Part shown: positions 6,345 to 50,414 of the stretch, piece after piece
Position numbering within the stretch: the stretch's first letter is position 1
How the letters are laid out: each line of letters starts with the position of its first letter
From: a bacterium
GTDB lineage: Bacteria; Auribacterota; Erginobacteria; Erginobacterales; DAOSXE01
Reading direction: 5' to 3'
Assembly: GCA_035380285.1 (NCBI GenBank)
Contig: DAOSXE010000015.1
Location: 1,927 to 65,926 of the forward strand
DNA length: 64,000 bases
The notes under the pieces: model-generated
Database searches by the model: none
Seen by the model: the letters and a program-made list of their open reading frames with translations, nothing else
Told to the model about the DNA's origin: nothing
Made by a program: the position numbers and the translations under genes

Positions 6345-6373
6345 TTGACATTATGGAGGGAAAATGGTAATAT
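6345..6373 (+). promoter_or_regulatory. Sigma-70-type promoter candidate for the 6412 gene
   Basis: TTGACA (6345-6350), 17-nt spacer, TAATAT (6368-6373). A GGAGG Shine-Dalgarno sits ~8 nt before the ATG at 6412. Confidence 0.5.
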
Positions 6374-6411
6374 TTAAATCAGTCCATTCAATCCTTAACG
6401 GAGGCTCTTTC

Positions 6412-23523: not shown

Positions 23524-26214
23524 ATGCGAGAATCCTTTCGTCCGAAACGGATCCCGATGAACCCGCGTAAATCATTCACAATTTCGGCCCTGATAATCGC
23601 GGCCGCGGCCGTCGCCGCCGCCGTGGTCTTTCCCACCGAAACCGCCCGTTTCGACATCCCCGTGGCTTTCACCTTCAGCGGGGAAGACCTGCTGGTCGTC
23701 GAGAAAAACGACAACACCATCCTGCGGCTGCGCGGGTTTTCCCCCGGTGCCCCGATGCACCTGGAGGAGGAGCGGGCCATCGAACCCGACGACGACCGTT
23801 TCTACTACATGGTCAGGGACCTGTATCCGGCCCCCGGGGGGGTCATGGTCCACAGCTACATCTACGACCGTCGGACCACCGACTTTCTGGGCTACCGCTT
23901 CAACCTCTACCGGGATATCGCCCGGGCGCCCGAAACCGTCTTCACCATTTTCCTCAAGGAACCCGACGAATCCCCGGAGCTGCGCTACGCCGCCGGGCCC
24001 GGGGGGCGGCATTATTTCGCCAACAACTGCCGGGGACAACGTTGCGTCTGGCGGCTGCCGGAGGATGCCCGGGGAGTGGTCATGACAAACGGCGTTCCCC
24101 CCGCGGAGATCCAGGAGTTGGGCGACCGCAACGGCGAGTTCGGGTACTGGATGAGCCTCTTCGTCGACCCGGAGGGGACGACATACCTCTCGTCCGGCGA
24201 AGACGACCAGATCGTCCGGTTCGACTCCGAGGGCAAGCGGCTGAGGGCGTGGGGACGACCGGGACGGGAGCGGGGGGAACTTCTGGCCCCGGTGGACGTT
24301 TTCCTGCTGGCGGAGGCTCCGGGAGGGGAACCCCGGTTGACCGTGGCCGGAACCGGCAACCGCGACTGGGTCTGTTTCGACCGTGAGGGGGAACCCGTCC
24401 GGGTCATAGAACCCCTGGAAAAAGGGTATCCTTACATCGATATCCTGGTGGGAAGGATCTTCGATATCGCGGGGAGGAACCTCAGCTACGACCTGGCCAA
24501 CAAGTGCCTGGTCGTCGCGGGTCCGACCTTCGAAGCCGTCGAGGTCTTCCGCAGGCCCGCCCGGCTCCGGACGGTCCTGCTCTGGCTGGGGGCGGGGCTG
24601 CTGGTCCTGCTGATCGCCGCCCGGGACCGCCTGGCCGCCCTCTGGAGACGGAGGAGGATTCCGGTTTTTTTCAAGATCATGCTTATTTTCGCGCCGCTGG
24701 TGGTGGGGGGGTTCCTCATCAGTTCCCGGGCCCGCAAGATCAGCTACCAGGCCTACCTGGAGGAGTCGAGGCTTCGTTCCGCCAACCTGGCCCGGGCGAT
24801 CCTCAACAGCGTCCCCGTCGAGGAACTGGAGAACATCAACCGGCCCGAAGACCGGGGAAGCGAAACCTACGAGAAGATATTCGCCGCCGCCGACCGCCTG
24901 ATCGACCGCAAAAACGTCCCCCAGACTCCGAAGTGGATCATCCATAAGATCGCGGGGGGACGCTATTACTTCGGGATCAACAGCTGGAGAGGCCCCATCT
25001 TCGAGCCTTTCATCGTCCCCGCCCAGCGCAGGATGTTTCTGGACGCGCTGGTGAAGAAGGAGCCGGCCTGGGGGCGGTTCGTCGACGACCAGGGGGAGTG
25101 GGTGAGTTACCTCCTCCCCGTTCTCGATCGGCACGGCGAAGTCATCAACGTCATCGAAATCTACCGGTCCACGGAGGAGATGGCCCGGATAGAACAGGAG
25201 ACCTTGAGCAGGGTCAAGGAAAACGCGGTTCTGATCGTGATCTCCTTCACCCTGCTGGCCCTGGTCTTCTCCTGGCTGTTCGTGCGGCGCCTGAAGCGAC
25301 TGACCGTGGAAACCCGCGAAATCAGCCGGGGCGATTTCAGCCGGCGCGTCGATTCCCGGGCCCGGGACGAGGTCGGCGACCTGGGCCGCGCCTTCAACCA
25401 CATGGCCGAGGACCTGAAGAACTACACCCGGGAACTGGAGAAAACCACCGCGGAGAAGGAAAAGATCCAGAGCGAACTGCGCCTGGCCCACCAGATTCAA
25501 CAGGACATCCTTCCCCACGTTTTTCCCCCGGAGGTGGCTTCACAAAAAGTCGAACTCTTCGGCAGAATGGTGCCGGCCCGGGAGGTGGGAGGCGATTTTT
25601 ACGACTACATCATGATCGACGATCATCACATCGGAGTGGCCATCGCCGACGTTTCCGGGAAAGGGGTTCCCGCCAGCCTCTTCATGATGGTCACCCGGAC
25701 CCTGCTCTTCAGCAACGCCTCCTTCAACCGGGAAGCGGCCGAAACCATCGCCAAGGTCAACCGGCTCCTCTGCCTCAACAACACCTCCTGCACGTTCGTC
25801 ACCCTGTTTTATTTCGTCTGCGACCTGAGGACGGGCCGTTTGGAATACTGCAACGCCGGCCACAACCCGCCGGTGGTGCGCAAGGGCGGGGCCGTCCGCC
25901 TCCTGCGCGAGCCCGGAGAAACGGGGCAGCCGGCCCTGGGGATACTGGAGGATGCGGACTACCGCCAGGGGCGTATGACCCTCGATCCGGGAGACGTTCT
26001 CCTCCTCTACACCGACGGGGTCACCGAGTGGCACAACCGCGACAACGAGCTCTTCGGAGAAGAACGGCTGCTGCGGGCGGTGGCCGAAGCGGGCGACCTC
26101 CCCGCCCGCGACCTGGCCGCGACGGTTTTCGCCAAGCTGGAGGCCTTCGGGGGGGAAGTCGAGCAGTTCGACGACACCACGATGCTGGTTTTCAGATACC
26201 TGGGACATCCCTGA
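23524..26214 (+). CDS. Membrane sensor phosphatase: extracytoplasmic domain + HAMP + PP2C/SpoIIE (RsbU-like) phosphatase
   Basis: N-terminal TM segment, ~330-aa external domain, second TM, a HAMP-like segment (RRLKRLTVETREISRGDFSRRV...DEVGDLGRAFNHMAEDL), then VGGDFYDY, IADVSGKGVPASLFM, YTDGVTE. Confidence 0.8.
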   Translation: MRESFRPKRIPMNPRKSFTISALIIAAAAVAAAVVFPTETARFDIPVAFTFSGEDLLVVEKNDNTILRLRGFSPGAPMHLEEERAIEPDDDRFYYMVRDLYPAPGGVMVHSYIYDRRTTDFLGYRFNLYRDIARAPETVFTIFLKEPDESPELRYAAGPGGRHYFANNCRGQRCVWRLPEDARGVVMTNGVPPAEIQELGDRNGEFGYWMSLFVDPEGTTYLSSGEDDQIVRFDSEGKRLRAWGRPGRERGELLAPVDVFLLAEAPGGEPRLTVAGTGNRDWVCFDREGEPVRVIEPLEKGYPYIDILVGRIFDIAGRNLSYDLANKCLVVAGPTFEAVEVFRRPARLRTVLLWLGAGLLVLLIAARDRLAALWRRRRIPVFFKIMLIFAPLVVGGFLISSRARKISYQAYLEESRLRSANLARAILNSVPVEELENINRPEDRGSETYEKIFAAADRLIDRKNVPQTPKWIIHKIAGGRYYFGINSWRGPIFEPFIVPAQRRMFLDALVKKEPAWGRFVDDQGEWVSYLLPVLDRHGEVINVIEIYRSTEEMARIEQETLSRVKENAVLIVISFTLLALVFSWLFVRRLKRLTVETREISRGDFSRRVDSRARDEVGDLGRAFNHMAEDLKNYTRELEKTTAEKEKIQSELRLAHQIQQDILPHVFPPEVASQKVELFGRMVPAREVGGDFYDYIMIDDHHIGVAIADVSGKGVPASLFMMVTRTLLFSNASFNREAAETIAKVNRLLCLNNTSCTFVTLFYFVCDLRTGRLEYCNAGHNPPVVRKGGAVRLLREPGETGQPALGILEDADYRQGRMTLDPGDVLLLYTDGVTEWHNRDNELFGEERLLRAVAEAGDLPARDLAATVFAKLEAFGGEVEQFDDTTMLVFRYLGHP

Positions 26215-26345: not shown

Positions 26346-27425
26346 GTGGGGGCGAAACGTCTCAAGGCCGATCCCGAAAGCATCGATTTCATTTTGGCGG
26401 CCAGTCTCCTGGCCCGTCAGCAGCGGGGCAACCACGCGGGATACTACGCGCTGGCGGCGCTGAGCCGGCTGTTGGAAAAAAACCTTCCCGGAGAGACGGG
26501 GCCGATCGAGGCCATGAACATCCGGCGGCGGCTGGACCGCCTGATCGGAGAAACCGAGTTCCCCGCCGAAATCGCCGCCAAGGTCTACGAGAACTGGAGA
26601 CCGATCCGGCCCTTCCTGGAGAAAAAAATCAGCATGGTACCCTCCCACCGCATGCGCCGGATCCGGCTTTTCGTCGAGTTGGTGGCATGGGTTTTCGAAA
26701 ACTACGCCCGGGTACCGGTCTCCGAAGTCGTCCGGGAGATGACCGTGGCCGACCTCGCCCGCCTGGAGCAGGGTTTCGGGTTCAAAGTCAGGGAGACCAA
26801 ACAAAAGAAACGGGAATTCCAGGGCTTCGCTCTCGCCGACTTCGACGACCTGCTCCGAATGCGCAAGCGCCTGGACGAGGCCGCGGGCGCCCTGGGCGGC
26901 TTGCTGGGCGACCGGGGAGGCCTCAGGCTGGGCCCCAGCCTGAGCGCGGTCGATTACACCAGTTCCTGGGTGGCCCTGACCTGGTGGGACAACCCCTTGG
27001 GCGAACCGGACGGCGAAGCCGGGTTTCGGGTCATGGCCACCACGGAAACGATCACCGCCGGCTTTTTCCTGGGCGCCGAGAGTACCCGCACCCGGGAGCG
27101 TTATTACCGGCGCCTGGGATCGGGCGAACTCGCCGGCTCCCTGGAGCGGTTCGCGGGAGCGGGGGGAACGTTCTTCGACTTTTTCTGGACCTGCAACCAG
27201 GACGAACGCCGTCCCATCGACGCGCCGGAGCAACTCCGGCCCAAGATAGAGGAGACACTGGCGGAACTCGCCTCCCTCCCCCCTCCCTACCCCGATACCC
27301 CGCTGCTGCCGGGCTGGGCCTGGACCCGTGAAGAAGCGGCGGGAATGCGGGAGCGCATCCTCCCCCTGGCCGCCGGGGCCTTCGGCCCCTGCGCCGCCTT
27401 AACGGCGGCCCTGGCCGGTCAGTAA
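26346..27425 (+). CDS. Hypothetical protein
   Basis: 359-aa ORF (GTG start) with protein-like composition. I recognise no motif. Confidence 0.45.
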   Translation: MGAKRLKADPESIDFILAASLLARQQRGNHAGYYALAALSRLLEKNLPGETGPIEAMNIRRRLDRLIGETEFPAEIAAKVYENWRPIRPFLEKKISMVPSHRMRRIRLFVELVAWVFENYARVPVSEVVREMTVADLARLEQGFGFKVRETKQKKREFQGFALADFDDLLRMRKRLDEAAGALGGLLGDRGGLRLGPSLSAVDYTSSWVALTWWDNPLGEPDGEAGFRVMATTETITAGFFLGAESTRTRERYYRRLGSGELAGSLERFAGAGGTFFDFFWTCNQDERRPIDAPEQLRPKIEETLAELASLPPPYPDTPLLPGWAWTREEAAGMRERILPLAAGAFGPCAALTAALAGQ

Positions 27426-28066
27426 CTGCCCCCGGAGAGTTTGAAGAGCCAGAAATCGGTGGGAACGGTCAGTTCTTTCTCCTCCTCGCCGGGAACGTCC
27501 TTGACCTCCAGCACTTCCCGCTTCGGAAACCAGAACTCCCTTCCCTCGGAAACGAGACAATAGGCGCGATCGGTTTCCCGGAGGATCCGGGCGCGCGCGG
27601 CGGTGAAGGCCTGGTCGTCCTCGCTCGGGTTTTCCAGGCGGCGGAGTTTGAAGTTGTAGTAGTTTTTCTGGATGACGAACCGGCAGCGGTCGTCCTCGAT
27701 CGGTTCGATCTCGGAAAAACAGACCCGGGGCAGAAACATCTCCCGGCCGTCGATTTCGACGCAGAGGGCGTCCTGTTCCTCCCTGACCAGGCGCCCGACG
27801 ACCTCGACCACATCTCCCAGGATCGAACCTTTGACCCCGGTGGCCTTCTCTTTCAGCCCCCTCATTTCCGCCCGCTTGGCCTCGAGGACCGATTCGAGGA
27901 TTTCCATCTCGTAGATGCCCTGCTCCGCCCGCAGACAGGAACGCACGGCTTCTTCGGGAATCCAGACCTTGCCTCCCCCCAGGTCGACCAGGCTGGCTTC
28001 CTCGGTGCGGATCAATACCTTGAGACGGAGACGGACGTAGCGTTCTTCCTCGGGCATCGAGATCAT
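27419..28066 (-). CDS. Hypothetical protein with three internal repeats, last gene of the T2SS-cargo gene run
   Basis: Start chosen at MISMPEEERY (28066); the N-terminal part of the 324-aa track ORF overlaps the giant gene. Three related segments: ASLVDLGGGKVWIPEEAV, ALCVEIDGREMFLPRVCF, AYCLVSEGREFWFPKREV. Confidence 0.55.
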   Translation of the reverse strand: MISMPEEERYVRLRLKVLIRTEEASLVDLGGGKVWIPEEAVRSCLRAEQGIYEMEILESVLEAKRAEMRGLKEKATGVKGSILGDVVEVVGRLVREEQDALCVEIDGREMFLPRVCFSEIEPIEDDRCRFVIQKNYYNFKLRRLENPSEDDQAFTAARARILRETDRAYCLVSEGREFWFPKREVLEVKDVPGEEEKELTVPTDFWLFKLSGGSY

Positions 28067-28131: not shown

Positions 28132-31100
28132 CTACCGAAGCTCGGAGTAAGGGCTTTCGGGAACCACCTGGTTCTCCAGATCGGAAACGGGGCGGAAGGT
28201 GGTGACCACCGCGCCCGGGGAATAGCGGTGAAGGCGGATCTCCTGGTCCCACGCCCCGGATTTCCCCCAGCGCAGATCGGGGTCGGGATCGGCCCAGGTT
28301 TCGGCGGGAACGTGCCCGGCATGATCCACTCCGGTCCACGTCACCTCCAGCTCCGTCCCTCCCACCGTCAGCACCATCCCGTCGTCGATCCACCGGTAGT
28401 CGCCCTGCAGGTGCCAGCGCACGATCCCCTGGCCGGGAAGGGTATCCTTGACTTCGATTCTCCTGTCTCCGGTCTTGTAGAGAACTACCTCGCGGCGCCA
28501 GCTCAGCGCTCCGACCGTGGAAACGGTGACGCTGCGGGACAGTTCGGAAGTGTCTTCCCAGGTCTCGGCCGCCGCCGGCGGGTAGGTGCCGCCGGTCTCG
28601 ACCAGGTTATGGAGTTTGAACGACGGATTGGAGTAGTTCATGGTCACCCCGGTGACGAACTCCTCGGGACCGACCCCCAGGCTGAGGATATCGTTGCCGA
28701 AGCCGTACCGGTCCTGGCCGCTGCCGGCGACCTGGGCGCCGAGGTCGAGCATGAGGAAAAGGGCGTCGGACCCGGACCCCGACCGGTGGATGACCTTGTC
28801 CGGGGTATCCACCAGTTGCGCCAGGGACTCGTCGTAGACTCCCGCCAACGATTGTCCCGGCATCATCGGCCGGGAGAGCACGCCCCCGGGGCAGTCCCCG
28901 TCGGCGGGCGCCTCGGGAACGAGATCTTCGTTCAGGAACCAGTAGAGGTAGACGGGGTTCATGTACACGGCGAACGGCCCCATCTGGGTGCCGGGGTAAC
29001 CGTAATCGTTGCGGCCGTAGGCCACCACTTCATGGCCCCGCGCGTACTCGAAGGCCTGCTGCAGAAGCCATTTGGCCCGCGCCGCGGCGGACCGGTGCTC
29101 GGGCACGTCATCGTCCAAAACCGCGGTGGCGGCGGCCAGGACTTCGAGGAAACGGTCGGTGAAGGCCTGCAGGTAATCCTGCCCGTAGGCGGGCATGAAC
29201 CCGTTGGGAGGGAAGGTCTCGATCAGGAGACAGACCTGGCGGTAGAAGTTGTCCCGCCACCTCTTGCCTTCCCCGTCCTCCACCGGGATCTCCATCCGGT
29301 TGGAGTAAAGGGCGACCCGCAGCATTTCCCGGATGAAGAGCCCCTGCCAATAGCGCGAGTTTTCGGGCAGGGTCCAGGTGTCGTCGTAACTGAGGAGCCG
29401 GTTGGCCCAGGCAATCATCTCCCGGCCCGGCTCTCCGCCGACGATATACCCCACCACCGCGTTGAGTCCGCAGACCGTCCCCTGCGCATAGTTCCCGGTA
29501 GAAGCGACTTCGCGGCGGTCCAGGGCCAGGCGGACGAATTTCTTCTCGATCTCGGCGCGCTCGGCCGACGAGAAAATCCCGGAGGCGGCCAGGGCCAGGT
29601 AGGCCTCGGCGACGTCGGAGATGCCCCGGGAGGTGGAGGTTCCGCCCCAGTCGAAGGAGGAATCCCGGACCAGGGCCAGCAGGTTCTCGCGAAAATAGTC
29701 GGCGCAGGGCCGGTACCCGGTCGCCAGATAGATGAAAGCGGTGTTGGGGAGATAGTCGTAAAGCGCGAACCGGGCGTCGGACGCCCCCAGGTTGCCGTCG
29801 AAGTTCTTGAAGTAGCACCCGGTGGCGAAATCGATCCAGTCGGCATAGTCCTCCACGGTCAGGCTGGAAATAAACGAGGCCCTCAGGGGGGAGGCCGGGG
29901 AATAATTGCCGTTGGTTTTTCCGGGGGTGCCGAAGTTGGTGGTGGTGCCCACGCTGTAGGTGGAACTGCTCAGCGCCCGGGCCCAGTTGGACTTGGTGGA
30001 ACCGCTCACGTCGGGGTCGAGACGCTCCATCGAAAATCCTTCCTGGGTGGTCACGAACCAGCCGGCGGAACTGCAGTCCACCGTATCGATGGTCTTACCG
30101 GAGTCGTCCTTCAAGACCAGCTTGTCCCCGCTGCCGCCGCACGTCAGCGTACTGGTGGCCTGGGCCCGGGCGCCGTTGGCCTGAACCGGAACGCTCAGGG
30201 CGCTGTTGGCGACGACCACGTAGAACGCCCCCACCGGGAGTTCGTAGCTCTTGAGCGAGATGCTCCAGTTTTCGGAATCGTTGTTCAGGGTCCAGTTTTC
30301 CACCTGCTGGGCGGCATCCCCGTAATTGGCGATCTCGATCCAACAGTAGGTGGGCTGATTCAGGGTGCCGGCGTAATTGATCTCGTTGATGACCAGCTGG
30401 CTGCTGCCGCCGCTGGAAGTGGGAGCCGGCACGGGAGTGGGAGTGGGGATGGGGGTGGGGGGAGGCGTGGGGGTGGTGAGGGTGACCCCGAACCAGGTCC
30501 GGTAAGCTTCCTTGTAGGTTTCCTGGAGGAGTCCGTAGGCCAGGGTCTGCCCTTCCGGCCGATACGGTTCCGGCGGCTCCAGGTCCTGAAGATCGTATTC
30601 CGCCTCCGCCGCGGCCGAGGCCCCGGCGGCCGCGCCGGATACCGGGGTGGGAACGACCGGGGGAAGCCAGCCCGCGCGGGCGAAGGGAGTGGGAGTGGGG
30701 GTGGCCCCGAACGTGTTCAAGTCCTCTATGTCGGGGGCGTACCAGACATGAACGCCGCCGTCTCCGGAAGCGGCGAAGACCATGTCGTCCTCCACCGCCA
30801 GCCCCTGCAGCGGGGCGCCCCCGGCTTCCAGCCTGCGCGCCAGGCGGAACCCGGGCAACTCCCAGACATAGAGGGAGCCGTCGTGACAGGAGGCGTAGAG
30901 AAACCCCCGGGCGGCGGCGGCGCCCGTAACCTGGTCCCGGCAGTCGTCGAGGATTTTCAGGGGAGCGAACTCCAGGGACCAGACATAGACATTCCCGTCC
31001 GAGGAGGAAAGGTATATCCGGTCGGCGTCGGTCGCCACCGAGTTCAGGTCGCTTTCGGCGCCGGCCAGCTCCGCCAGGGGCGCTCCGGTGGTCCGGTCCC

Positions 31101-33924
31101 AGACGTAGAGCGAGTACTCCGAGCCGCCGGTGGCGGCGTAAAGCCGTCCGGCGGCGGCGTCGACCGCCGTCACCCAGCCCCGGGACACCTGCCATTCTTC
31201 CTGCTGCTGAAACCCGTTCCGGTTCCAGGCGTAAACCCGGCGGCCGGTGGTGCCGGCGTAGACCATGCCGCCGTAAGCCGCCACTCCCTCCACCGGATCT
31301 CCGATGCTGGTCTCGCCGCGCAGGGAGCGCACCGGTTTCAGGGCAAGCCGGTCCCATACGTAGACGTTCCCGTCGTCGCTGCCGCCGTAGATGTAGCGGT
31401 CGTCGGCGGCGACCGAGATTATGGCCCCGGCGTTGGGGTAGGAGCAGCGGGAGCGGCGGCTGAAATCGTCGCGGTCCCAGATATAGACGTTGCCGTCCTC
31501 GTTCCCCCCTACCACCGAGCGGGAATCGGCCCAGACGGCCTCCATCCAACCGCTTCCGCCCTCGAGCACCGCCACTTCTTCGAACGGCGCGGGGGTGACG
31601 CTGGGCACGGCCAGCAACTGGGGCGCCGGGGTCGGAGAAAAGGGCGGAGTCCCCGCCGGCGCCGCCCCGCCGGAGGGGGAAACCGTGGGAACGGGGGTCG
31701 GGGAGCCGGGCGGCGTGGAGGCCGGGGTGACGGCGGCGGTCGGCGTCGGCGCGGGGGCTTCCGGGGACGGGGAAGGAACCGACTTCGCCGGCACCTGCAG
31801 CCAACGGTCGTAGTAGGTGTTCCCCTCGACGTCCACGTACCATTCGCGGTCGACGGCGTCGATAACGGGGGGGGGATACACGGCGGTGCGGCCGGCCGCC
31901 GCCCGGGTCGGGAGCTCGGTCAGGATTTCGAAGGAAACGTCCAGATAATCGCCTTCGGCTACGATAAAAGCGGGGTCGGTCCCCAGTTGGAGCTTGACCA
32001 TGACCGGCGCGGCGGGGACGGCGGTGCGGTCGGTGTAGGCGGTGAATTCCTGACAGTAGTCGTAGGTGCGCGCCAGCCACTCCCCGTTGTCGGCCCGGGC
32101 GACGATCCATTTCCAGCCCTTCTGCCCGGCGGCGCGGGTCTCCTTGAGATCGAGATCGGTCACCCGGCTCAGGGAGAGAGGAACGGCGCCGTACTCCGGG
32201 GTCGGAGTGGCGCTGGCGCTGGGGGTGGCGCTGGGGGTCGGGGTCTTGTACCCCTCCGGCGTCGGAGTCGGAGTCGGCGTGGGCGGGCTGGGGGTGGGGG
32301 TATGGTAACCGAAAGGAGTCGGCGTCGCGGTGGGCGCGGGAGTGGGAGTGGTCGGCGGAGTCGGAGTCGGTTCCGGGGTCGGGGTGGGGCGCGAAGAGAC
32401 CGGGGAACACAGCTCTTCGTCGCTGTAGCAGATGCCGTCCCTTCCCAGCCAGAAACGGGACGAGGCCGGAGCGCCCGGGGGCAGGTAGATCCTGGTCTGG
32501 GCGACTTGGGCCTCCCCTTCTTCGAGATAGAAGTACTGGAGGTCCAGGTAATCGCCGGCTTCGATCCGGGGATCCTCGGAATCCTTCTTGATGACCAGCG
32601 AAAGCACCGCGTCCGCGTCCAGCTTGGGCCCGGGACCGGCAAAGGAGTTGAGGCTGTCCTTGACCGAGGCCAGGGGCACATCCTCGCCCGGGGCCTCCAG
32701 GCGGTATTCCCACCCCCAACTCAGGGAGGCGCGGGGCCGGGCGATGGAGAGCGTGTTGATCTGAAACGCCGCCAGGGGGGTGGCGCAGTAGGCCGGAGTC
32801 GGCGACGGCGACGGGGGAACCGTCGGCGTCGGCGCCGCCTGACAGAGGGAGACGTCCCGGTAGAGGACCCCCGTGGAATCGGGGTACCCGACCAGAGGAG
32901 CGGTCGGGTCCAGGTCCAGGGCAGGCAGGGCGATGCTGACGGCGGAACTTCCGGAACCGGTGGCGTAATCGATCTCCAGGGTGTCCCCGGGCTCGATCAC
33001 GATGTTCCCGGAGTACCCGGGATTTTTTATGATGGTCAGGCGCAGGGGGCGGTCGTCGGTGAAAACGGCGGCGACCCGCATCTGGTTGAGGTTGTCGGTG
33101 ACGTAGGCCAGGGTGGTCCTGCCGTCGGCGGTCTGGAGCAGATAGCCCCACCCGTCGGTTGAGGTGCTCCGGGGGTGGGAGAGGCTGAGGGCGTTGATCC
33201 ACCGGGCCCGGAGGGGTTCGCGGCCGGAGCAGTAATCGGGGGTGGGGGTCGGCGTGCCCGGAATCCGGGTGGGCGGGGGCGTCGGCGTCGTCAGGTAGGG
33301 CGTCGGGGAGGTCGGCCAGATGCCGAAGGCTTCGAAATAGAACTGCCGGTAGGCTTCGTCGAGGAGGGACCGGGCCAGGGTCCCGTTCTCTTCCCGGTAA
33401 GGATTCCGCGGGTAGACGGATACCCGGCGCTCGGCGCCTTCGGGCGTGGTGATGACGACGACGATCTCCTCGCTTTCGTCCCGGTGCAATCCGCCCCGGG
33501 CGGCCGCGGCCGCGGCCGCGGTCGGACCCGGGCTGGGGGTGGGGATCCGGCTGGGCGTGGGCACCGGCGTGGGCGGCGTGGCCAGGACCACGCCGAACGC
33601 CTGGAAATAAAACTCCTTGAAGCCCCGGCCGAGCAGGGAATAGTCCAGGCTCCGGTTTTCGGGCCGGTAGTCCTCCCGGGGCTCCACCATCGTCTCGCGG
33701 GTCTCCCCCGAGGGCTCGACCACGACCACGTCCACCTTCTCCGCGCCCCCGCCGTGGAGCCCCAGGCCGGCCTCGCGGGAGGCGCCCGGAACTCCCGGCA
33801 CCCGGAAGACCCGGCCGGGAGAGGGCGAGGGAGACGGCGTCGGGGACTCGGCGCCCTCGCTCCGGAGAGGGGACAGGGCCGCGGCCAGGAGCGCCCAGGC
33901 GAAAAAGAGCGGCCGCGCCTTCAC
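28132..33924 (-). CDS. Giant secreted multidomain protein (1930 aa): novel repeats, WD40/PQQ-like beta-propeller, lamin-tail domain, tentative heparinase II/III-like C-terminus
   Basis: Signal peptide MKARPLFFAWALLAAALSPLRSEG. PT-rich linkers. Seven blades of the xDGNVYVWD type. LTD pattern LVINEINYAG...CWIEIANYGD...WTL. The start overlaps the gspM stop by 4 nt. Confidence 0.8.
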   Translation of the reverse strand: MKARPLFFAWALLAAALSPLRSEGAESPTPSPSPSPGRVFRVPGVPGASREAGLGLHGGGAEKVDVVVVEPSGETRETMVEPREDYRPENRSLDYSLLGRGFKEFYFQAFGVVLATPPTPVPTPSRIPTPSPGPTAAAAAAARGGLHRDESEEIVVVITTPEGAERRVSVYPRNPYREENGTLARSLLDEAYRQFYFEAFGIWPTSPTPYLTTPTPPPTRIPGTPTPTPDYCSGREPLRARWINALSLSHPRSTSTDGWGYLLQTADGRTTLAYVTDNLNQMRVAAVFTDDRPLRLTIIKNPGYSGNIVIEPGDTLEIDYATGSGSSAVSIALPALDLDPTAPLVGYPDSTGVLYRDVSLCQAAPTPTVPPSPSPTPAYCATPLAAFQINTLSIARPRASLSWGWEYRLEAPGEDVPLASVKDSLNSFAGPGPKLDADAVLSLVIKKDSEDPRIEAGDYLDLQYFYLEEGEAQVAQTRIYLPPGAPASSRFWLGRDGICYSDEELCSPVSSRPTPTPEPTPTPPTTPTPAPTATPTPFGYHTPTPSPPTPTPTPTPEGYKTPTPSATPSASATPTPEYGAVPLSLSRVTDLDLKETRAAGQKGWKWIVARADNGEWLARTYDYCQEFTAYTDRTAVPAAPVMVKLQLGTDPAFIVAEGDYLDVSFEILTELPTRAAAGRTAVYPPPVIDAVDREWYVDVEGNTYYDRWLQVPAKSVPSPSPEAPAPTPTAAVTPASTPPGSPTPVPTVSPSGGAAPAGTPPFSPTPAPQLLAVPSVTPAPFEEVAVLEGGSGWMEAVWADSRSVVGGNEDGNVYIWDRDDFSRRSRCSYPNAGAIISVAADDRYIYGGSDDGNVYVWDRLALKPVRSLRGETSIGDPVEGVAAYGGMVYAGTTGRRVYAWNRNGFQQQEEWQVSRGWVTAVDAAAGRLYAATGGSEYSLYVWDRTTGAPLAELAGAESDLNSVATDADRIYLSSSDGNVYVWSLEFAPLKILDDCRDQVTGAAAARGFLYASCHDGSLYVWELPGFRLARRLEAGGAPLQGLAVEDDMVFAASGDGGVHVWYAPDIEDLNTFGATPTPTPFARAGWLPPVVPTPVSGAAAGASAAAEAEYDLQDLEPPEPYRPEGQTLAYGLLQETYKEAYRTWFGVTLTTPTPPPTPIPTPTPVPAPTSSGGSSQLVINEINYAGTLNQPTYCWIEIANYGDAAQQVENWTLNNDSENWSISLKSYELPVGAFYVVVANSALSVPVQANGARAQATSTLTCGGSGDKLVLKDDSGKTIDTVDCSSAGWFVTTQEGFSMERLDPDVSGSTKSNWARALSSSTYSVGTTTNFGTPGKTNGNYSPASPLRASFISSLTVEDYADWIDFATGCYFKNFDGNLGASDARFALYDYLPNTAFIYLATGYRPCADYFRENLLALVRDSSFDWGGTSTSRGISDVAEAYLALAASGIFSSAERAEIEKKFVRLALDRREVASTGNYAQGTVCGLNAVVGYIVGGEPGREMIAWANRLLSYDDTWTLPENSRYWQGLFIREMLRVALYSNRMEIPVEDGEGKRWRDNFYRQVCLLIETFPPNGFMPAYGQDYLQAFTDRFLEVLAAATAVLDDDVPEHRSAAARAKWLLQQAFEYARGHEVVAYGRNDYGYPGTQMGPFAVYMNPVYLYWFLNEDLVPEAPADGDCPGGVLSRPMMPGQSLAGVYDESLAQLVDTPDKVIHRSGSGSDALFLMLDLGAQVAGSGQDRYGFGNDILSLGVGPEEFVTGVTMNYSNPSFKLHNLVETGGTYPPAAAETWEDTSELSRSVTVSTVGALSWRREVVLYKTGDRRIEVKDTLPGQGIVRWHLQGDYRWIDDGMVLTVGGTELEVTWTGVDHAGHVPAETWADPDPDLRWGKSGAWDQEIRLHRYSPGAVVTTFRPVSDLENQVVPESPYSELR

Positions 33925-34481
33925 TTGCGTTCCGCCCCCTGGTTTTTGAGGGGCTCGGCCGAAATGATCGTCGCCTCGACGTCGAGCAGGTCGTCGTTCT
34001 TGCGGTTGAGAGCCACGGTCAGTTCCCGGATCACCTGGCTGCCTCCGTTCTGGTACTCGACGGCGTAGAGAAAGTCCACCAGTTGATCCAGGGGGACCCC
34101 CGCCAGCTCCACCTGCAGCTCCACCACCTTATACAGGTCGTGCACGGTCCGGTTGCGGGTGTTCATCTTGGTCAGTTCGGCCGCCGGGGCCTTCTCCGCG
34201 GCCAATTTCTCGATCAGGCCCTGATTCAGCACGGTTTCGCCGCCCACCCCGCCCATGCCCCGGAGGATCTGGTCGGTTTTGGACCGCAAGACCGCGTACT
34301 TGCGGTGGAGACGTTCCATCTTCTGCAGGGAGATCTCCTGCTCTTCGATCCGTTCGTTGACGCCGACCCATTGGTCCCAGAGCGAACCTTCCCGCAGGAA
34401 AAGAAACCAGACCACGGCGATGAGAAGAAACCCGCCGCCGCCGACGAGCACCGTCCGTTTTTCCCGTTGCTTGAGGGCCAT
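33921..34481 (-). CDS. gspM: Type II secretion system protein M-like (bitopic assembly protein)
   Basis: 186 aa, single N-terminal TM (LVGGGGFLLIAVVWFLFL). It follows the gspL-like gene, which is the basis for the call. Confidence 0.5.
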   Translation of the reverse strand: MALKQREKRTVLVGGGGFLLIAVVWFLFLREGSLWDQWVGVNERIEEQEISLQKMERLHRKYAVLRSKTDQILRGMGGVGGETVLNQGLIEKLAAEKAPAAELTKMNTRNRTVHDLYKVVELQVELAGVPLDQLVDFLYAVEYQNGGSQVIRELTVALNRKNDDLLDVEATIISAEPLKNQGAERK

Positions 34482-34484
34482 CCG

Positions 34485-36113: not shown

Positions 36114-36131
36114 CTTCGCGTCGCCGCCGGC

Positions 36132-38095: not shown

Positions 38096-38507
38096 CCGGC
38101 TTCTCCTCGGGTTCCGGGTATTCGAGGTTGACGATATAGGTGGAGAAGGCGACCTTCCTCCCCTCTTCCTCCCCTCCCTCGGGGAACGAAACCCCCTCGA
38201 CCTGGGCCAGGGATTCGGCCACCTCGCCGACCGCCGCCTTCCAGCGCAGATGTTCCCATTCCTCCACGACCCCGCCGTAGTCGCCCTGGGCGGCGGGAAG
38301 TCCGATCGCCTCCACCGTCGCCAGAGCGGAAGCGGCCGCCAGCGTTTCTCCGGTGCGTTCCTTGGATCGGGCGAAATTCTTCAGGACCGAACCGTGGGTG
38401 AGCAGGAGGGGGGAGAGGGATATCCCCAGCAGAGCGACCGCGACCATGACCTCGATCAGGGTAAACCCCCGGGCCCCGGGAAACGACTTCTCAGCCCTTG
38501 ATCTCAA
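38088..38507 (-). CDS. gspI: Type II secretion minor pseudopilin (GspI-like)
   Basis: Prepilin motif ARGFTLIEVMVAVALLGISL. 139 aa. Confidence 0.6.
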   Translation of the reverse strand: MRSRAEKSFPGARGFTLIEVMVAVALLGISLSPLLLTHGSVLKNFARSKERTGETLAAASALATVEAIGLPAAQGDYGGVVEEWEHLRWKAAVGEVAESLAQVEGVSFPEGGEEEGRKVAFSTYIVNLEYPEPEEKPVE

Positions 38508-38967: not shown

Positions 38968-38988
38968 GACGTCGAGGGCTCCCCGGCC

Positions 38989-39408: not shown

Positions 39409-39500
39409 GCTACCTCCCCCCGGCGCCGGAGAGAGACCCGGAGGGTTTCCCCGCCGCGCTCCCGGCGCCGGTTTTCGTTTTGTTCGTCACGAGCGTCTTC

Positions 39501-40721: not shown

Positions 40722-40758
40722 CCGTCTTCCCGTCCCGTTCGCCGGGCCGCTCCCGGCT

Positions 40759-42486: not shown

Positions 42487-42504
42487 CGCCTTTCTCCCGC
42501 CGGC

Positions 42505-44937
42505 CTACTGGCGCAAGCGCGCGGTCCCCCGTTTCGTCTCTTCCTCGTCGGGGCGGCCGAAGGTTACCCGGGGCAGGTTGTTGAGGAACCCCAGGGCGCT
42601 CCCGGAATCGGTTTCGGCCGGAACCGCCTCCGGCGGTTTTTCTTCGGAAGCGGCCGTCTCCGGTGCCGGTTCCGCGGGGGCGGAAACTTCCTCCGGCGCC
42701 GGTTTCGCCTCGGAAACGGCGGCTTCCGGGGCCTCGCCCGCGGGGGGCGCGGCCTCCGATTTCTCCTCGTACGCGGCCGCGGGAGCGGGCTCTTCCTCCT
42801 CCCCGGCGGCCGCCCGTTCTTCCCGGAGGACCCGGTCGAAGAAGGCGGAACCGGAATTCTCTTCCCGGTAGATGCTCTTGAGTTCGTCGAGGCGCTCCTG
42901 CTGCTTGCGCCGCGCCTCTTCTTCCCGCAGCCGGGTCTCGTTTTCGTCCTCGGAGAGGCGCAGGTCGATATAGGGCATTTCGTGCCGTTTCATCGCGGTC
43001 AGATCGGCGATCTGCTGGGTGGTTTTGACCACCCGGGGCGTGATGAAGACCAGGAGGTTGCGCTTGGCGGTGGTGTTGGTCTCCCAGCGGAAGAGATATC
43101 CCAGCAGGGGGATGTCGCCGAGGAAGGGGATCTTGTCCTCGGTCTGGGTCTTTTCGTCCTGGATCAGGCCGGAGATCACGATGGTGTGGTTGTCCTTGAC
43201 GATGACGTTGGTTTCGGTGATGCGCTTGTAGGTTTCCGGGGTCAGGTAGTACCCCGACACCGATTGACCGATGATCGACGAAATCTCCTGGCTGATCTCG
43301 AGCCGGACCATGCGGTCGCGGCTGATGTGGGGGGTGATCTTGAGTTTGATCCCCACGTCCTTATACTCGATGTCCTGATAATCGTTGTTGTTGTCGTTGC
43401 TGTTGATCTCGATCTTGCTCACGTAGGGGATGTTCTTGACCACTTCGATCGACGCTTCCTCGTTGTCCATGGTCAGGACCTGGGGAGTGGAGAGGATATC
43501 GACGTCCTGGTTGGTCTGAAGGGCATGGATGAGCACGGCCAGGTCGGGGATGCTGGTGCCGGTGCCCGCCATCTTCTGAACGAACCCCATGGTCCCCCCG
43601 GAAAGGCCGCTGGTGACGATGGCGGTGGGATCGGAGGCCTGAGCGGCGAGCATGGAGGAGAGGGCGTTCCCGCTGGAAGACCAGCTCGAACCTCCGTAGC
43701 CCTGGGCGTTGCTGCGGCCGGCGCCCATGGAAGAATAACCCTGCCCGGTGGGAAGCCCCTGGGTCTGCCCCTCGTTGCCGATCGACTGGATCTCGACGCC
43801 GAGTTCGAAGGACTTGTCGTAAGCGACTTCGGCGATCAGGACCTCGACCAGGACCTGGTCGCGCATGATGTCCAGCTGCTTGATGATGTTCTGCAGGGAG
43901 GCGTAATCCTCGGGGGTGGCGTCGATGATCAGGGAGTTGGTGGCCTTGTCTTCGCTGATGAGGGGGACGACCTCCCCTCCCGTGGTTTTGCGCTTGCCGA
44001 TGACGTTGTTGAGGACCTTGGATATCTCTTCGGCGTCGGAGTTCCGGAGAAAATAAACGTGGATGTTGGTGCGTTCGGTTTCGACGTCGAGCTTCTTGAT
44101 CAGTTCGATGACCTGGCGGGTGTCTTCGGAGTTGGCGAGGATGATCAGGGAGTTGGTCCGTTCGTCGGCGATGAGCTTGAGAGTCGATTCCGTGGGCTGC
44201 AGCTGCTGGCGGTTGCGGCGGCGGGGGGTGGGGGGCGTCCCCGGAACCGTTCCGGCTTCCTCGATGACCTGGGTCAGTTCCGCCGCCAGGGTCTCGGCGG
44301 CGGCGTAGCGCAGGGGCAACACCGTGATTCGGGTCTCGTAGCCGGGAACGTCGAGTTCCTTGATGATCTTGACCAGCCGGTGGATGTTGGAGGAAACGTC
44401 GGTCACGATCAGGGTGTTGGTCATGGGATAGGGGATGACGCTGGCCTCCTTGGAGAAGAGCGGCCCCAGGGCGGCCCGGACCTTCTCGACCTCGGCGTAC
44501 TCCAGGGGAATGAGCTGCGTGATCAGGGTGTCTTCGGGCACGATCTGTTCCAGGTTGTCGCCGACCGCGGTCTGGATGTTCCTCTGGCTGCCCAGGCGCT
44601 TGGTCGAGACCTTGATCACTTTCCCCGAGGGGACGGCGGTGAACCCGCGCACTTCCAGGATCGATTCGAAGACCTTGTAGGCCTCGTCCAGGGGGATCAT
44701 GGTGGGGGAGATGACGGTCACCGTGCCCCGGACGTCGTTGTCGACGATGAAGTTCTTCCCGGTCAGATCGCTGATGTACTTGATGACCAGCCGGATGTCG
44801 ACGTTGTCGAAATCCATGCTGACCATGCCTTCGTCGTCCGCCGGCTGCTGCGCCCGGACCGGCCTCCCGGGAAAAGCCAGTCCCAGGAGGCAAAGAAGGA
44901 GGACGGGTAGTGTGCGGATTCCGTGGTTTTTTCTCAT
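42505..44937 (-). CDS. gspD: Type II secretion secretin D
   Basis: Signal peptide, N0-N3-like domains, secretin core (...VSGLIQDEKTQTEDKIPFLGDIPLLGYLFR...LLVFITPRVV), and an acidic/Ala/Pro-rich C-terminal tail. Confidence 0.9.
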   Translation of the reverse strand: MRKNHGIRTLPVLLLCLLGLAFPGRPVRAQQPADDEGMVSMDFDNVDIRLVIKYISDLTGKNFIVDNDVRGTVTVISPTMIPLDEAYKVFESILEVRGFTAVPSGKVIKVSTKRLGSQRNIQTAVGDNLEQIVPEDTLITQLIPLEYAEVEKVRAALGPLFSKEASVIPYPMTNTLIVTDVSSNIHRLVKIIKELDVPGYETRITVLPLRYAAAETLAAELTQVIEEAGTVPGTPPTPRRRNRQQLQPTESTLKLIADERTNSLIILANSEDTRQVIELIKKLDVETERTNIHVYFLRNSDAEEISKVLNNVIGKRKTTGGEVVPLISEDKATNSLIIDATPEDYASLQNIIKQLDIMRDQVLVEVLIAEVAYDKSFELGVEIQSIGNEGQTQGLPTGQGYSSMGAGRSNAQGYGGSSWSSSGNALSSMLAAQASDPTAIVTSGLSGGTMGFVQKMAGTGTSIPDLAVLIHALQTNQDVDILSTPQVLTMDNEEASIEVVKNIPYVSKIEINSNDNNNDYQDIEYKDVGIKLKITPHISRDRMVRLEISQEISSIIGQSVSGYYLTPETYKRITETNVIVKDNHTIVISGLIQDEKTQTEDKIPFLGDIPLLGYLFRWETNTTAKRNLLVFITPRVVKTTQQIADLTAMKRHEMPYIDLRLSEDENETRLREEEARRKQQERLDELKSIYREENSGSAFFDRVLREERAAAGEEEEPAPAAAYEEKSEAAPPAGEAPEAAVSEAKPAPEEVSAPAEPAPETAASEEKPPEAVPAETDSGSALGFLNNLPRVTFGRPDEEETKRGTARLRQ

Positions 44938-45016
44938 GCGGTTTCCCCTGCTCGATGTTGGCTCTGTAATCGGCTTCGTTTCCCGGGCCCGCGCGGGCGC
45001 CCGTTGCCGATTCGTT

Positions 45017-45970
45017 TCATTGCGTCGGATCCAGTTCCTGGTCCTGGACCAGATATTCCAATTGAACGTGCCGGTCCCCCCGGAGGACGTCGACGACCAC
45101 CGTCTGCGCGTCCTGGATCTTGAGGAGGATGTCCATGGCTTCCTGTTTGCCGGTGATGGTCAACCCGTTGACTTCCTGGATCACGTCCCCCTCCCTCACC
45201 CCCAGCTTGTAGGCCAGGTGCTCCCGGGGCAGGACGACGATCTCGTAACCGGAGGCCGGCCCCCGGGTCCGCCCCTGGGGCGGATACCAGGGACGGCACC
45301 CCACCGTCCGCAGGGAGCCGATGACGTCGTCGGGGACCAGCCGGAAGTTCTCCCCCCCGCGGGCCAGCTTCTCCAGCATCTTCTCGTTGACCAGCTTCCA
45401 CATCCCCCGGCGGCTGACCAGCCAGCGGTTCGGCCCCAGTTTCTTGAAGACCCGGGAAAAATGGAGCCGGTTTTCCGGGACCGGGATGTGGCCGATGAAC
45501 GACGAGATCACGTGGCGGCGGCCGTTGTTCTCCAGGGTGACGTCGATGCGGTCGATTTCGACCACCCGCCAGCCCCGGATGACGTCGTCGAGGCGGTAGA
45601 TCTTCTGGGTCTTGCTGGCCAGGTCCTCGATGATCGCCCAGCTGCGGCGGGGATCGTCGAAGACCGAGGTTCCCTTGAGTTCGAGGCGGGGCGGCGGCGC
45701 CGTCGGGGGCGGCGGGGTCGGGGGCGCTTTTTCCTCGGGCGGCTGGAACTTGGTCTGCCAGAGGTTGCGCGCGAGGATGGCGCCGTAGTAGCCGGGGCCG
45801 GGAGCCGAAGCTTCCCCCCCGGAGCCGCCGTCGTGCTCGTAGGTCACCGACGCGCCCACCTCGCCGGCGCGGGGCGGAACGACGATGGTCCAGATCAGAT
45901 ACCCCACGCCGGCGGCCAGGACGATCCCCAGGAAGTAATTGACGAAGCTGATGTAGCGGCGCGGTATCAC
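45017..45970 (-). CDS. gspC: Type II secretion protein C-like (TM + PDZ domain)
   Basis: N-terminal TM (FVNYFLGIVLAAGVGYLIW), Pro-rich linker, C-terminal PDZ-like LGVREGDVIQEVNGLTI. The start overlaps the anti-sigma stop by 4 nt. Confidence 0.6.
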   Translation of the reverse strand: MIPRRYISFVNYFLGIVLAAGVGYLIWTIVVPPRAGEVGASVTYEHDGGSGGEASAPGPGYYGAILARNLWQTKFQPPEEKAPPTPPPPTAPPPRLELKGTSVFDDPRRSWAIIEDLASKTQKIYRLDDVIRGWRVVEIDRIDVTLENNGRRHVISSFIGHIPVPENRLHFSRVFKKLGPNRWLVSRRGMWKLVNEKMLEKLARGGENFRLVPDDVIGSLRTVGCRPWYPPQGRTRGPASGYEIVVLPREHLAYKLGVREGDVIQEVNGLTITGKQEAMDILLKIQDAQTVVVDVLRGDRHVQLEYLVQDQELDPTQ

Positions 45971-46713
45971 TCCCCCCCCTCCGTCCCGGCGGCGGCCGAG
46001 GCCGCGCGCTCGCGGCGGACCCGCCGCGCCAGTTCGTCGACCTGGAACGCGGGGGGGAGCAGGACCGCTTCGCCCTCCCGCTTGCGGCCGGCATTGAGCA
46101 GGAACCGGAAATCGCCGTGGAGGTCCCTGACCAGCTCGCGGTAGCGGGACCCGGGGGAGAGCGTCCGGGTGAGGGAGAGGGCCCGCCCCTGAAGGTCGCG
46201 GGAAACGATGTCCTCCAGCAGTTCGTCCCAGGTCCCGTAGCCGCCGGCCTCCAACCGGTCCAGGACCTCCTCCACCTGCTCCAGGTAGTCGACCAGGACC
46301 GCGTCCGGGTCGCGGACGGGCGACGGGGAAAACGTCAGGGCCTCGGTGAAGGAGGGAGCCGGCCGGCGGACGAGGAAAAACCAGCCCGTCCCGGCCAGCA
46401 CGACGACGGCGGCGGCCGCCGCCGCCACCCGCGCCAGGGGAAGAATCGGAAAGACCGGGGGCTTTTTAAGTTCCTGTTCCAGCCGCTCCACCACGGCGTG
46501 GTCGGCGGCGGGGGAGAACACGGGGGGAGCGGCGGGGAGAGACTCCCAGGCCCGGGAGAGTTCCTCGCGGTAAGCCCGGCAGCCGGGGCAGTCCTCGAGG
46601 TGCTCGCGGACCCGCTCGGAAAAGCAGTCGGGCCCCGCGATCCCCAGGATCCGGTCCCGCAGGAGTTCCCGCACGGATCGACAATTCTCAGGTTGTTTCT
46701 TCATTCCCTTCAT
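45967..46713 (-). CDS. Anti-sigma factor (zf-HC2 type, single TM)
   Basis: N-terminal C..H...C..C zinc-finger pattern (CRSVRELL...HLEDCPGCRAY) and a central TM (AAAAAAVVVLAGTGWFFLV). It overlaps the sigma gene. Confidence 0.7.
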   Translation of the reverse strand: MKGMKKQPENCRSVRELLRDRILGIAGPDCFSERVREHLEDCPGCRAYREELSRAWESLPAAPPVFSPAADHAVVERLEQELKKPPVFPILPLARVAAAAAAVVVLAGTGWFFLVRRPAPSFTEALTFSPSPVRDPDAVLVDYLEQVEEVLDRLEAGGYGTWDELLEDIVSRDLQGRALSLTRTLSPGSRYRELVRDLHGDFRFLLNAGRKREGEAVLLPPAFQVDELARRVRRERAASAAAGTEGGE

Positions 46714-48953: not shown

Positions 48954-50414
48954 ATGAAAGCACGGGCCATCATCGCAGGGATTCTGGCGGGAACGCTCGG
49001 GGGCGCCGCGGCGGTTCCGGGGTTCACCGTGAAAACCGGCGAAAACGGCGGATTCGCCCATTGGGGCGACGGCGGCGGCACCATATTCTACGAAGTGGCG
49101 GACCCAACCGAGGCGATCGGAGACCGGGAACTGAACCGTATCGAAACCGCCTTCCAGACCTGGGCCGCGCCTGCTCACGGAACCGTCCGTTTCGTCTTCA
49201 CCGGCCGCACCCGCAGGCCGCGGGCCGAAAAAGACGACCGCAACCTCCTGGTCTGGCGGAAAGATTGGCCCTACGGGGCCGACAACCTGGCGATGACCAC
49301 CACCTGGATGAACCCGGAAACCGCCGCCATCGACGAAGTGGACATCGAGTTCAACGCCCGCGACTACGACTGGACGGACGGCGGACCGGTCGATCTTCTC
49401 ACCGTCGCCCTCCACGAAATCGGCCACCTGCTCGGCCTCGGACATTCCTTCTACGCCGAAGCGGCGATGCACGACTCCCTGCCGCCGGAACATCCGATCA
49501 AGCGGACGCTGAGCCGCGACGACCTCGACGCCGTGGCGTTTCTCTACCCGGTGCGGAACTGTCATTTCTCGGTCTATCCCCTCGCCCCCGCCCGCCGGAG
49601 CCGGGCCGAGGTCTCCCGGCTCCCCGGGCCCGGCTCACCGTCCTTTCAGCGTTCGATCGCCCTGGCCGCCGTCGACGCCGACCGCGACGGCGTCGTCGAC
49701 CAGGTCGCGGCGGCTTGGAACGGCGCCAATGGGCGCCCCCGGTTCGAAGTCCGGGATTTCCGGCCCGACGGCCCCGGCCGTTATCCCCTGGTCCTGGGGC
49801 CCGTCGCTCCTCCCGAACTGAAGGGAGTGCGGGCCTTGGCCGGGGTCGACCTCGACGGCGACGGTTTTGTCGCCGAACTGGCCGCCGTCACCGGCGACGG
49901 GGAACGGGAGACGGTGCGGTTCTTCGATCTTCTCGATCCGGCCGGGGGCCCGGCGGCCGAACTCGATCTGGGACGTTCCCCCGCCTGCAACGTGGTGGGG
50001 ATCGCCGCTCTCAACGTCCCCGGGGAAGCGGCGCTGGCGATCCTGCGGGCCGAGCGCGACGGTTTCCTGCTGGAAATCGTCCCCCTTCCGGACCCCGGCG
50101 AAAAACGGCGCGCGGAACCGACCGCCAGCCTGCGCCTTCCCGGCTTCGGGAACGGTTCGCGTCTGCTGGGGATAGCTTCATCCCCCGACGCCGACGTCCG
50201 GGAACTGCTCTTTCTGGAGTACTCGCCGGAAGACGGCGCCTGGATACACGGTTTCGACCTGGAAAGGGATCTTTCGGGAGCCGTGACGGACCTTTCCTAT
50301 AATTCGTCGTTCCCCGCCGGGGAAGAATCCGGCGCCCTGCTCTACCGGATGGCGGTGATGGATCCCGACCGCGACGGCTGGGCCGACGAGCTGGTCATCC
50401 TCGGCGTTCACTGA
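48954..50414 (+). CDS. Secreted matrixin-like (M10) zinc metalloprotease with C-terminal FG-GAP-like repeats
   Basis: Signal peptide; HEIGHLLGLGHS (HExxHxxGxxH); C-terminal DADRDGVVD / DLDGDGF / DPDRDGWADE repeats. Confidence 0.75.
   Translation: MKARAIIAGILAGTLGGAAAVPGFTVKTGENGGFAHWGDGGGTIFYEVADPTEAIGDRELNRIETAFQTWAAPAHGTVRFVFTGRTRRPRAEKDDRNLLVWRKDWPYGADNLAMTTTWMNPETAAIDEVDIEFNARDYDWTDGGPVDLLTVALHEIGHLLGLGHSFYAEAAMHDSLPPEHPIKRTLSRDDLDAVAFLYPVRNCHFSVYPLAPARRSRAEVSRLPGPGSPSFQRSIALAAVDADRDGVVDQVAAAWNGANGRPRFEVRDFRPDGPGRYPLVLGPVAPPELKGVRALAGVDLDGDGFVAELAAVTGDGERETVRFFDLLDPAGGPAAELDLGRSPACNVVGIAALNVPGEAALAILRAERDGFLLEIVPLPDPGEKRRAEPTASLRLPGFGNGSRLLGIASSPDADVRELLFLEYSPEDGAWIHGFDLERDLSGAVTDLSYNSSFPAGEESGALLYRMAVMDPDRDGWADELVILGVH

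Follow-up and report, generated by a model that had tools for sequence, protein, structure and literature searches.

The giant gene and its type II secretion operon

The window, that is, the whole stretch of 64,000 nucleotides that was analysed, carries on its minus strand a giant gene (28132-33924) whose product of 1930 aa was defined from the open reading frame list and the translation, with a GTG start overlapping the stop codon of gspM. A secreted protein of this length had been proposed here by an earlier, sequence-only reading, and the open reading frame is real; an identical 1930-aa sequence is deposited at NCBI (P0076) under the title 'MAG TPA: lamin tail domain-containing protein [bacterium]'. 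The lamin-tail domain is the sole annotation that the protein carries in public databases. The JGI gene call (P0007) is 1867 aa long and starts 63 codons later, which results in the loss of the signal peptide. The long form of the gene is favoured because orthologues such as P0009-P0012 have comparably hydrophobic N-termini.

The start codon of the giant gene and the gspM stop codon share 4 nt (GTGA), and a purine-rich AGGGGG stretch is found upstream of the start. The first 25 residues (MKARPLFFAWALLAAALSPLRSEGA; 33850-33924, minus strand), read from the sequence by eye, constitute a putative Sec-type signal peptide, with a basic n-region, a hydrophobic core and a c-region of small residues. 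No lipobox Cys was seen within these 25 residues, and beyond the signal peptide the 1930-aa protein is devoid of transmembrane segments.

The type II secretion (T2SS) operon lies directly upstream (33921-44937, minus strand), according to the annotation of the neighbouring genes. It starts with gspD (42505-44937), encoding a secretin with an N0 domain, and continues on the same strand with gspE (40759-42486), gspF (39501-40721), gspG (38989-39408), two or three minor pseudopilins (38088-39154; gspI is among the operon genes), gspJ (37409-38095), a weakly recognised gspK-like gene (36132-37562), a PilM/gspL-like gene (34485-36113) and gspM (33921-34481). The genes gspD, E, F, G, I, J, K-like, L-like and M are thus contiguous upstream of the giant gene. 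Besides the giant gene, the window shows no carbohydrate-active gene in linkage with the operon.

The coupling of the giant gene with the T2SS, already pointed out from the sequence, was confirmed both by the overlap with gspM and by synteny. In all seven assessable genomes, comprising the window and six loci from Candidatus Auribacterota and other PVC-group bacteria, the giant gene comes directly after gspM. The six loci whose upstream flank is long enough for this assessment (L004, L007, L008, L010, L011, and L013) show the order gspJ, gspK, gspL, gspM and then the giant gene, with gaps of at most about 200 nt. Approximately 65 nt downstream of the giant gene there is a gene for a 215-aa protein (27419-28066, minus strand), conserved in synteny in most loci, with no terminator-like site between the two genes. 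The 215-aa protein had no matches in a search of the PDB, and PADLOC gave no matches for its gene or for the island genes.

The paper naming these genera (PMC9324843) infers type IV pili for both Ca. Euphemobacter frigidus and Ca. Erginobacter occultus, and a search of its text for the terms T2SS, type II secretion, lamin, WD40 and polysaccharide lyase gave no matches. No literature combining lamin-tail domains with type II secretion was found, and the two papers mentioning both lamin-tail domains and polysaccharide lyases seem unrelated by their titles and the openings of their abstracts.

Propeller, lamin-tail domain and repeat modules

Most domains of the giant protein are kept apart by Pro/Thr/Ser-rich linkers of 13-65 aa. 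A seven-bladed WD40-type beta-propeller occupies aa 780-1070 (30715-31587, minus strand). Pfam PF00400 was matched with 44.6 bits, where the cut-off is 27, over a region of about 797-1070, and seven blade-end motifs, such as GNVYIW, GNVYVW, and GRRVYAW, occur at positions 811, 852, 894, 935, 975, 1016, and 1054, with a spacing of about 41 aa; the number of blades agrees with that proposed by the first reading. The lamin-tail domain, also proposed there, spans aa 1174-1335 (29920-30405, minus strand) as delimited by the family alignment, with the PF00932 match at aa 1174-1283 scoring 49.3 bits against a threshold of 34.3. This domain makes up less than 10% of the protein, and its annotation leaves the remaining residues, about 1750, unexplained.

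Two families of repeats are found in addition to these domains. Module A occurs at aa 64-115 (33580-33735), aa 154-205 (33310-33465) and aa 1105-1150 (30475-30612), all on the minus strand; the three copies were delimited by self-comparison, alignment and HMM, with a structure model added that covers the second, and were detected by masked self-BLAST with E-values of 2.6e-11, 4e-7, and 1e-5. The predicted structure is a beta-hairpin followed by one helix. In a model comprising the second copy, its linker and the first module B (18-row alignment, mean pLDDT 83), the hairpin reached pLDDT 81-88 and the helix pLDDT 54-77. Each of the three copies is followed by a Pro/Thr linker, as originally described, but the third is not placed in front of the core with the others: it follows the propeller, immediately precedes the lamin-tail domain, and consists of the helix part only, without the N-terminal hairpin. 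The position before the lamin-tail domain is kept in all relatives; in every full-length open reading frame from other genomes, at least one module A is found close to the N-terminus, and another directly precedes the lamin-tail domain.

Module B also occurs in three copies on the minus strand. The first (aa 228-365; 32830-33243), delimited by self-comparison and structure model, is modelled with pLDDT above 90 as a beta-sandwich of some ten strands, bearing Cys232 and Cys361 near its two ends. The second (aa 376-511; 32392-32799) and the third (aa 575-715; 31780-32202), were both defined by self-comparison, alignment and HMM; masked self-BLAST gave E-values of 5e-10 (first and second copies) and 7e-5 (second and third copies). 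The third copy is divergent and lacks the terminal Cys pair. Of the features attributed beforehand to module B, the three copies and the GD(T/Y)L segment are present in 3/3, but the third copy has Gly in place of the opening Cys and is devoid of the IN(A/T)LS segment. The copy number of module B varies from 0 to 3 per protein among full-length orthologous open reading frames.

Neither module matched any Pfam family at E <= 10, in agreement with the initial statement that these repeat families are not recognised. When the A and B modules were concatenated without linkers, no matches were obtained among 5.8 billion proteins, and a profile search with module B retrieved nothing but three fragments of proteins from this family. 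Module B showed no significant match in sequence or fold with described carbohydrate-binding or Ig-like families, an assignment that the sequence-only reading had named as the one that would overturn its view of the repeats, and the best Foldseek match had an E-value of 0.12, with TM values of at most 0.28. The "IN.LS" opening raised the possibility of a degenerate lamin-tail domain, which was ruled out by an hhalign probability of 0.15% against the lamin-tail domains of the family. Module B may represent a new sandwich topology, as predicted from a shallow alignment. HMMs built from the window copies detected both modules in orthologues from other genomes, and this recurrence indicates that the repeats are more than a chance resemblance. 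No other gene of the window contains module A or B.

The C-terminal domain

The region following the lamin-tail domain (aa 1344-1930) measures 587 aa; its existence and, tentatively, its lyase-type fold were anticipated, but the length of about 800 aa first given to it was not correct. It had no matches with Pfam or NCBIfam families, and phmmer gave no matches with PDB chains. An AlphaFold2 model built from a 7-row alignment (pTM 0.77, mean pLDDT 69, with eleven segments below pLDDT 50) predicts a helical (alpha/alpha) toroid at aa 1357-1665 (28930-29856, minus strand) followed by an antiparallel beta-sandwich at aa 1681-1913 (28186-28884, minus strand). In domain numbering, to which 1343 is added to obtain full-protein numbering, the helices lie between residues 14 and 322 and the all-beta part at 338-570.

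Structural comparison of the model retrieved as the best match the PL35 enzyme GAGase II (8khv; score 18.2, with 448 residues aligned), followed by a PL35 chondroitinase (9o3q; 17.5), dermatan-sulfate epimerase (6hzn; 16.8), the PL40 ulvan lyase (9vtk; 16.5), the PL17 alginate lyase (9irq; 16.0), the PL5 enzyme AlgL (4ozw; 15.7), a PL15 enzyme (3a0o; 15.2), the PL12 heparinase III (4fnv; 15.2) and the PL21 heparinase II (3e7j; 14.2). The model and these matches together indicate that the predicted fold is the (alpha/alpha)-toroid plus beta-sandwich of uronate-polysaccharide lyases, with the two-domain arrangement of the PL8/12/15/17/21/35/39 type, also called 'heparinase II/III-like'. The tentative likeness to heparinase II/III or alginate lyases suggested previously is therefore borne out at the level of the fold only, and the finding that would have contradicted it, a C-terminal region without a lyase-like fold, did not occur.

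The enzymes of this clan use a catalytic triplet made up of Tyr and His as acid/base and of Asn, His, Glu or Arg as neutraliser (PMC12088678, Table 4). In GAGase II the triplet is Tyr246/His401/Asn192, and the known spacings are of about 54 residues from Asn to Tyr and of 130-166 from Tyr to His (PMC12088678). An alignment of 16 family members revealed the invariant residues A146, Y150, S180, R193, P229, N231, G232, G238, K275, W276, L277, P314, P330, R371, E411, F413, W466, R468, D484, and W494. Y150 is the only invariant Tyr, and there is no invariant His; H370 and H495 are common across the family, although not universal. In the motif P-E-(N/D)-S-x-(H/Y)-(Y/W), a Tyr is always present at one of two adjacent positions. 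The published spacings do not fit the invariant residues, and the Tyr/His/Asn triplet was not located in the 16-member alignment. Since the canonical triplet could not be located, it is the fold that points to lyase chemistry.

The family defined by this domain is rare. The six relatives retrieved by a word-indexed search of 5.8 billion proteins came without exception from metagenome bins of Auribacterota or of the PVC group. A profile search of all 1.84 billion cluster representatives gave 69 matches at E <= 1e-3, of which only about 20-25 span the domain. The profile of the 16-member alignment (A4) matched no lyase in the PDB, and the 16 members share no common Pfam family at E <= 10, including the Hepar_II_III_N/C- and Alginate_lyase-type models. 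Among 185,579 species-representative genomes scanned, 11 loci with the C-terminal domain were identified, including those of Ca. Erginobacter occultus, Ca. Euphemobacter frigidus and 'PVC group bacterium' bins. The domain is found in Auribacterota, in further PVC-group bacteria and in a single DPANN archaeon, lineages about which little is known.

Across the same loci the C-terminal domain shows 51-65% identity, compared with 32-43% for the propeller, 30-41% for the lamin-tail domain, and 30-35% for GspM. It is the best-conserved part of the protein, with blocks of invariant residues over 16 diverse members, a pattern expected of an enzyme domain.

Stand-alone homologues of the C-terminal domain were also found. 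P0006 (L003), which is membrane-anchored, is encoded inside a biosynthesis cluster with glycosyltransferase, epimerase and PMT-family genes. P0013 (L015) has a sulfatase and an AraC-type regulator nearby, and P0021 (L019) adjoins an (alpha/alpha)6 GH88/GH127-like protein. Nothing could be learnt from the gene contexts of P0014, P0015, and P0018, which are distant homologues. Another protein, P0057, was a weak profile match with a sub-threshold Hepar_II_III_C match exactly at the aligned site; its use as a bridge from the C-terminal profile to a solved lyase failed, as nothing relevant was matched in the PDB.

Comparison with known systems

The closest structures, those of PL35 (GAGase II, PDB 8KHV, and the chondroitinase 9O3Q), share with the modelled domain a structure-based identity of only about 11-12%, with no sequence or profile match, and the Tyr246/His401/Asn192 triplet of GAGase II has no evident counterpart (cf. 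PMC12088678). In addition, the solved PL35 enzymes are single-module proteins, not fused to a propeller, a lamin-tail domain or repeat modules. The Pfam models of the PL17, PL15, and PL5 alginate lyases, the PL12 and PL21 heparinases and the PL40 ulvan lyase were not matched at E <= 10 by any of the 16 members. Human dermatan-sulfate epimerase 1 (PDB 6HZN), a eukaryotic Golgi enzyme, has 11% identity and an undetectable sequence relationship. The C-terminal domain thus has a predicted lyase fold but no PL family to which it can be assigned. As for the lamin-tail domain, the feature in common with other bacterial extracellular proteins bearing PF00932 is a domain scoring above the Pfam threshold.

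The pullulanase PulA of Klebsiella is an operon-linked type II secretion cargo encoded with the pul genes. The giant protein would resemble PulA in being a large polysaccharide-acting exoprotein, with an activity here suggested by the fold, encoded beside its secretion genes. Unlike the PulA gene, that of the giant protein is the last of the gsp operon, overlaps gspM and keeps this position across genera; moreover, the giant protein lacks a lipobox and greatly exceeds PulA in size.

Proposed function and alternatives

The signal peptide, the overlap of 4 nt with gspM, the complete gspD-to-gspM set upstream, and the synteny in 7/7 genomes lead us to consider the protein as a T2SS cargo. The explanation that we prefer, to which we assign about an even chance of being right, is a dedicated cargo of the T2SS whose C-terminal end acts on acidic polysaccharide. 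The host would be a relative of Candidatus Auribacterota among the uncultured PVC-group bacteria, with the cargo encoded in the T2SS operon itself. According to this proposal, the protein would be directed to the periplasm by its Sec signal peptide, and its globular domains would fold there; the paired Cys residues at the ends of module B would fit an oxidising compartment. Export would then proceed through the GspD secretin of the T2SS. Outside the cell, the accessory domains would be spaced by the long Pro/Thr linkers, and the module B beta-sandwiches, the propeller and the lamin-tail domain would presumably bind the substrate or a surface. The C-terminal toroid plus beta-sandwich would most likely act by beta-elimination, cleaving an acidic polysaccharide that contains uronic acid, or would perhaps epimerise it. 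The analysis shows the domain anatomy, the modelled fold, the conservation of the family and the gene order; from these we infer secretion, the class of substrate and the chemistry. In favour of an action on polysaccharide are the high conservation of the C-terminal domain and the gene contexts of the stand-alone homologues P0006, P0013 and P0021, along with the sub-threshold Hepar_II_III_C match of P0057. Against it count the catalytic triplet that could not be located, the absence of any sequence match with a lyase family, the low-confidence segments of the model, the uninformative contexts of the other distant homologues and the lack in the window of a further carbohydrate-active gene beside the operon.

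A different explanation, which we regard as improbable, is that the protein is a non-catalytic surface fibre or adhesin of about 200 kDa with a beads-on-a-string organization, all of whose domains bind particles, prey or polymers, C-terminal catalysis having been lost or never present. That the canonical triplet was not located is consistent with this, as is an architecture consisting mostly of binding-type domains and long Pro/Thr linkers. Relatives reach up to about 3170 aa by enlarging the propeller and the number of B modules, and such expansion is frequent in adhesins. Attachment to surfaces or detritus by means of type IV pili has also been inferred for Ca. Erginobacter occultus (PMC9324843). 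However, it is the C-terminal domain, with its invariant polar or charged residues Y150, S180, R193, N231, K275, R371, E411, R468, and D484, that is most conserved in the protein, and this domain also occurs alone, without the accessory domains, in polysaccharide-related loci; both points speak against an adhesin.

The polysaccharide acted upon could instead be that of the producer, as capsule or matrix and not as food polymers, with the protein processing or modifying its own exopolysaccharide in the manner of dermatan-sulfate epimerase or of AlgL and AlgG during the synthesis of alginate. We give this alternative a similarly low probability. In its favour is the membrane-anchored, stand-alone homologue P0006, whose gene lies within a cluster for biosynthesis; nevertheless, the conserved neighbours in the window and at the orthologous loci are secretion genes and not genes for polysaccharide synthesis, and the sulfatase near another stand-alone homologue suggests degradation rather than synthesis. 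Finally, a structural or accessory part of the secretion machine, for example associated with the outer membrane or the pseudopilus and replacing GspN or GspC functions, is very improbable in spite of the invariant place right after gspM, the translational coupling and the two fixed positions of module A in every relative, given the length of 1930-3170 aa, the variable domain numbers, the Pro/Thr linkers, the enzyme-type C-terminal fold, the lack of transmembrane segments beyond the signal peptide and the confinement of modules A and B to this gene within the window. To our knowledge, no T2SS component from GspC to GspN resembles a protein of such size or architecture.

A broader form of the cargo reading can be formulated, in which a lineage-specific association of 'one machine, one giant cargo' is combined with a C-terminal domain that founds a new PL or epimerase family and whose active site is non-canonical, a module A serving as a new T2SS recognition or tethering element, and a module B with a new beta-sandwich fold. 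That all these hold jointly seems doubtful.

Concluding remarks

The protein itself was already deposited, and examples are known both of large exoenzymes with many domains and of T2SS-linked cargo genes. What appears to be new is a very rare sequence family with a predicted lyase fold, two unassigned modules, one of them without a fold match for its model, and the strict placement of the gene at the end of the gsp operon. With about 20-25 cluster representatives in 1.84 billion, the C-terminal family would, if active, constitute a new polysaccharide-lyase or epimerase family invisible to current annotation resources. The mechanism of substrate recognition by the T2SS is, as far as we know, still unsolved; the giant gene, by its strictly kept place behind gspM, provides a natural pairing of cargo and machine for its study, and a concrete candidate for the recognition signal is module A at its two fixed positions. 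For the Auribacterota, the giant protein provides a first clue to what these bacteria may degrade or attach to.

Genes around the giant gene

Besides the type II secretion operon, the window carries, on the forward strand, an 803-aa SBBP/FG-GAP beta-propeller-repeat protein (6364..8775), a HAMP-SpoIIE (PP2C) phosphatase (23524..26214), and a matrixin-type (M10) peptidase-domain protein (48954..50414). Between about 11300 and 21500, GC content is 0.51-0.53, compared with about 0.65 elsewhere, and this low-GC island was probably acquired horizontally. Its genes, all on the reverse strand, encode an O-methyltransferase (11282-12310), a HATPase_c_3 protein (12307-13740), a C5 DNA methylase (13733-14914), a metalloenzyme-superfamily protein (15614-16720), a RuBisCO-large-chain-like protein of 604 aa (16720-18534), and a GNAT-HAD fusion (19110-21059).

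Directly upstream of gspD lies a 386-aa ORF (44934..46094, reverse strand) for which a Pfam search returned no match; its position beside gspD suggests a GspC-like component. At the other end of the operon, the giant gene is followed directly by a conserved gene on the same strand (27419..28066, reverse), encoding a 215-aa protein that begins MISMPEEERY and is devoid of a signal peptide. A (W/F)(I/L/F)P motif recurs in each of three apparent internal repeats of ~60 aa, and the protein's sole family match was a weak one to S1_2 (E 0.0025). Most related loci keep the gene downstream of the giant gene, mostly with 50-58% identity.

The giant protein and its relatives

The start of the giant gene (33736..33924) differs between gene callers. 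The NCBI call (P0076, 1930 aa) begins at a GTG overlapping gspM, whereas the JGI call (P0007, 1867 aa), with its start at codon 64, lacks the signal peptide. At L005/L002, the gene is broken by an apparent frameshift into calls of 1428 and 496 aa.

Larger orthologues were found as stop-to-stop ORFs at L008 (2561..11143, about 2860 aa) and L009 (173..9682, about 3170 aa); they carry between two and four propellers and as many as three B modules. The family of the C-terminal domain is also represented in a Candidatus Aenigmarchaeota (DPANN) archaeon, whose 1698-aa protein (P0020) has a Laminin_G_3 domain as well, and at the end of a 1513-aa protein (P0016) whose N-terminal region is unrelated.

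Within the Pro/Thr linkers of the giant protein, a short motif, TP-x-(G/D/S)-(Y/F)-(K/R/H)-(T/S)-P, occurs at aa 539-545 and 558-564 (about 32233..32310), and all orthologues examined have 2-4 copies per protein. This motif, exemplified by TPEGYKTP, could be a site of processing, cross-linking or glycosylation.
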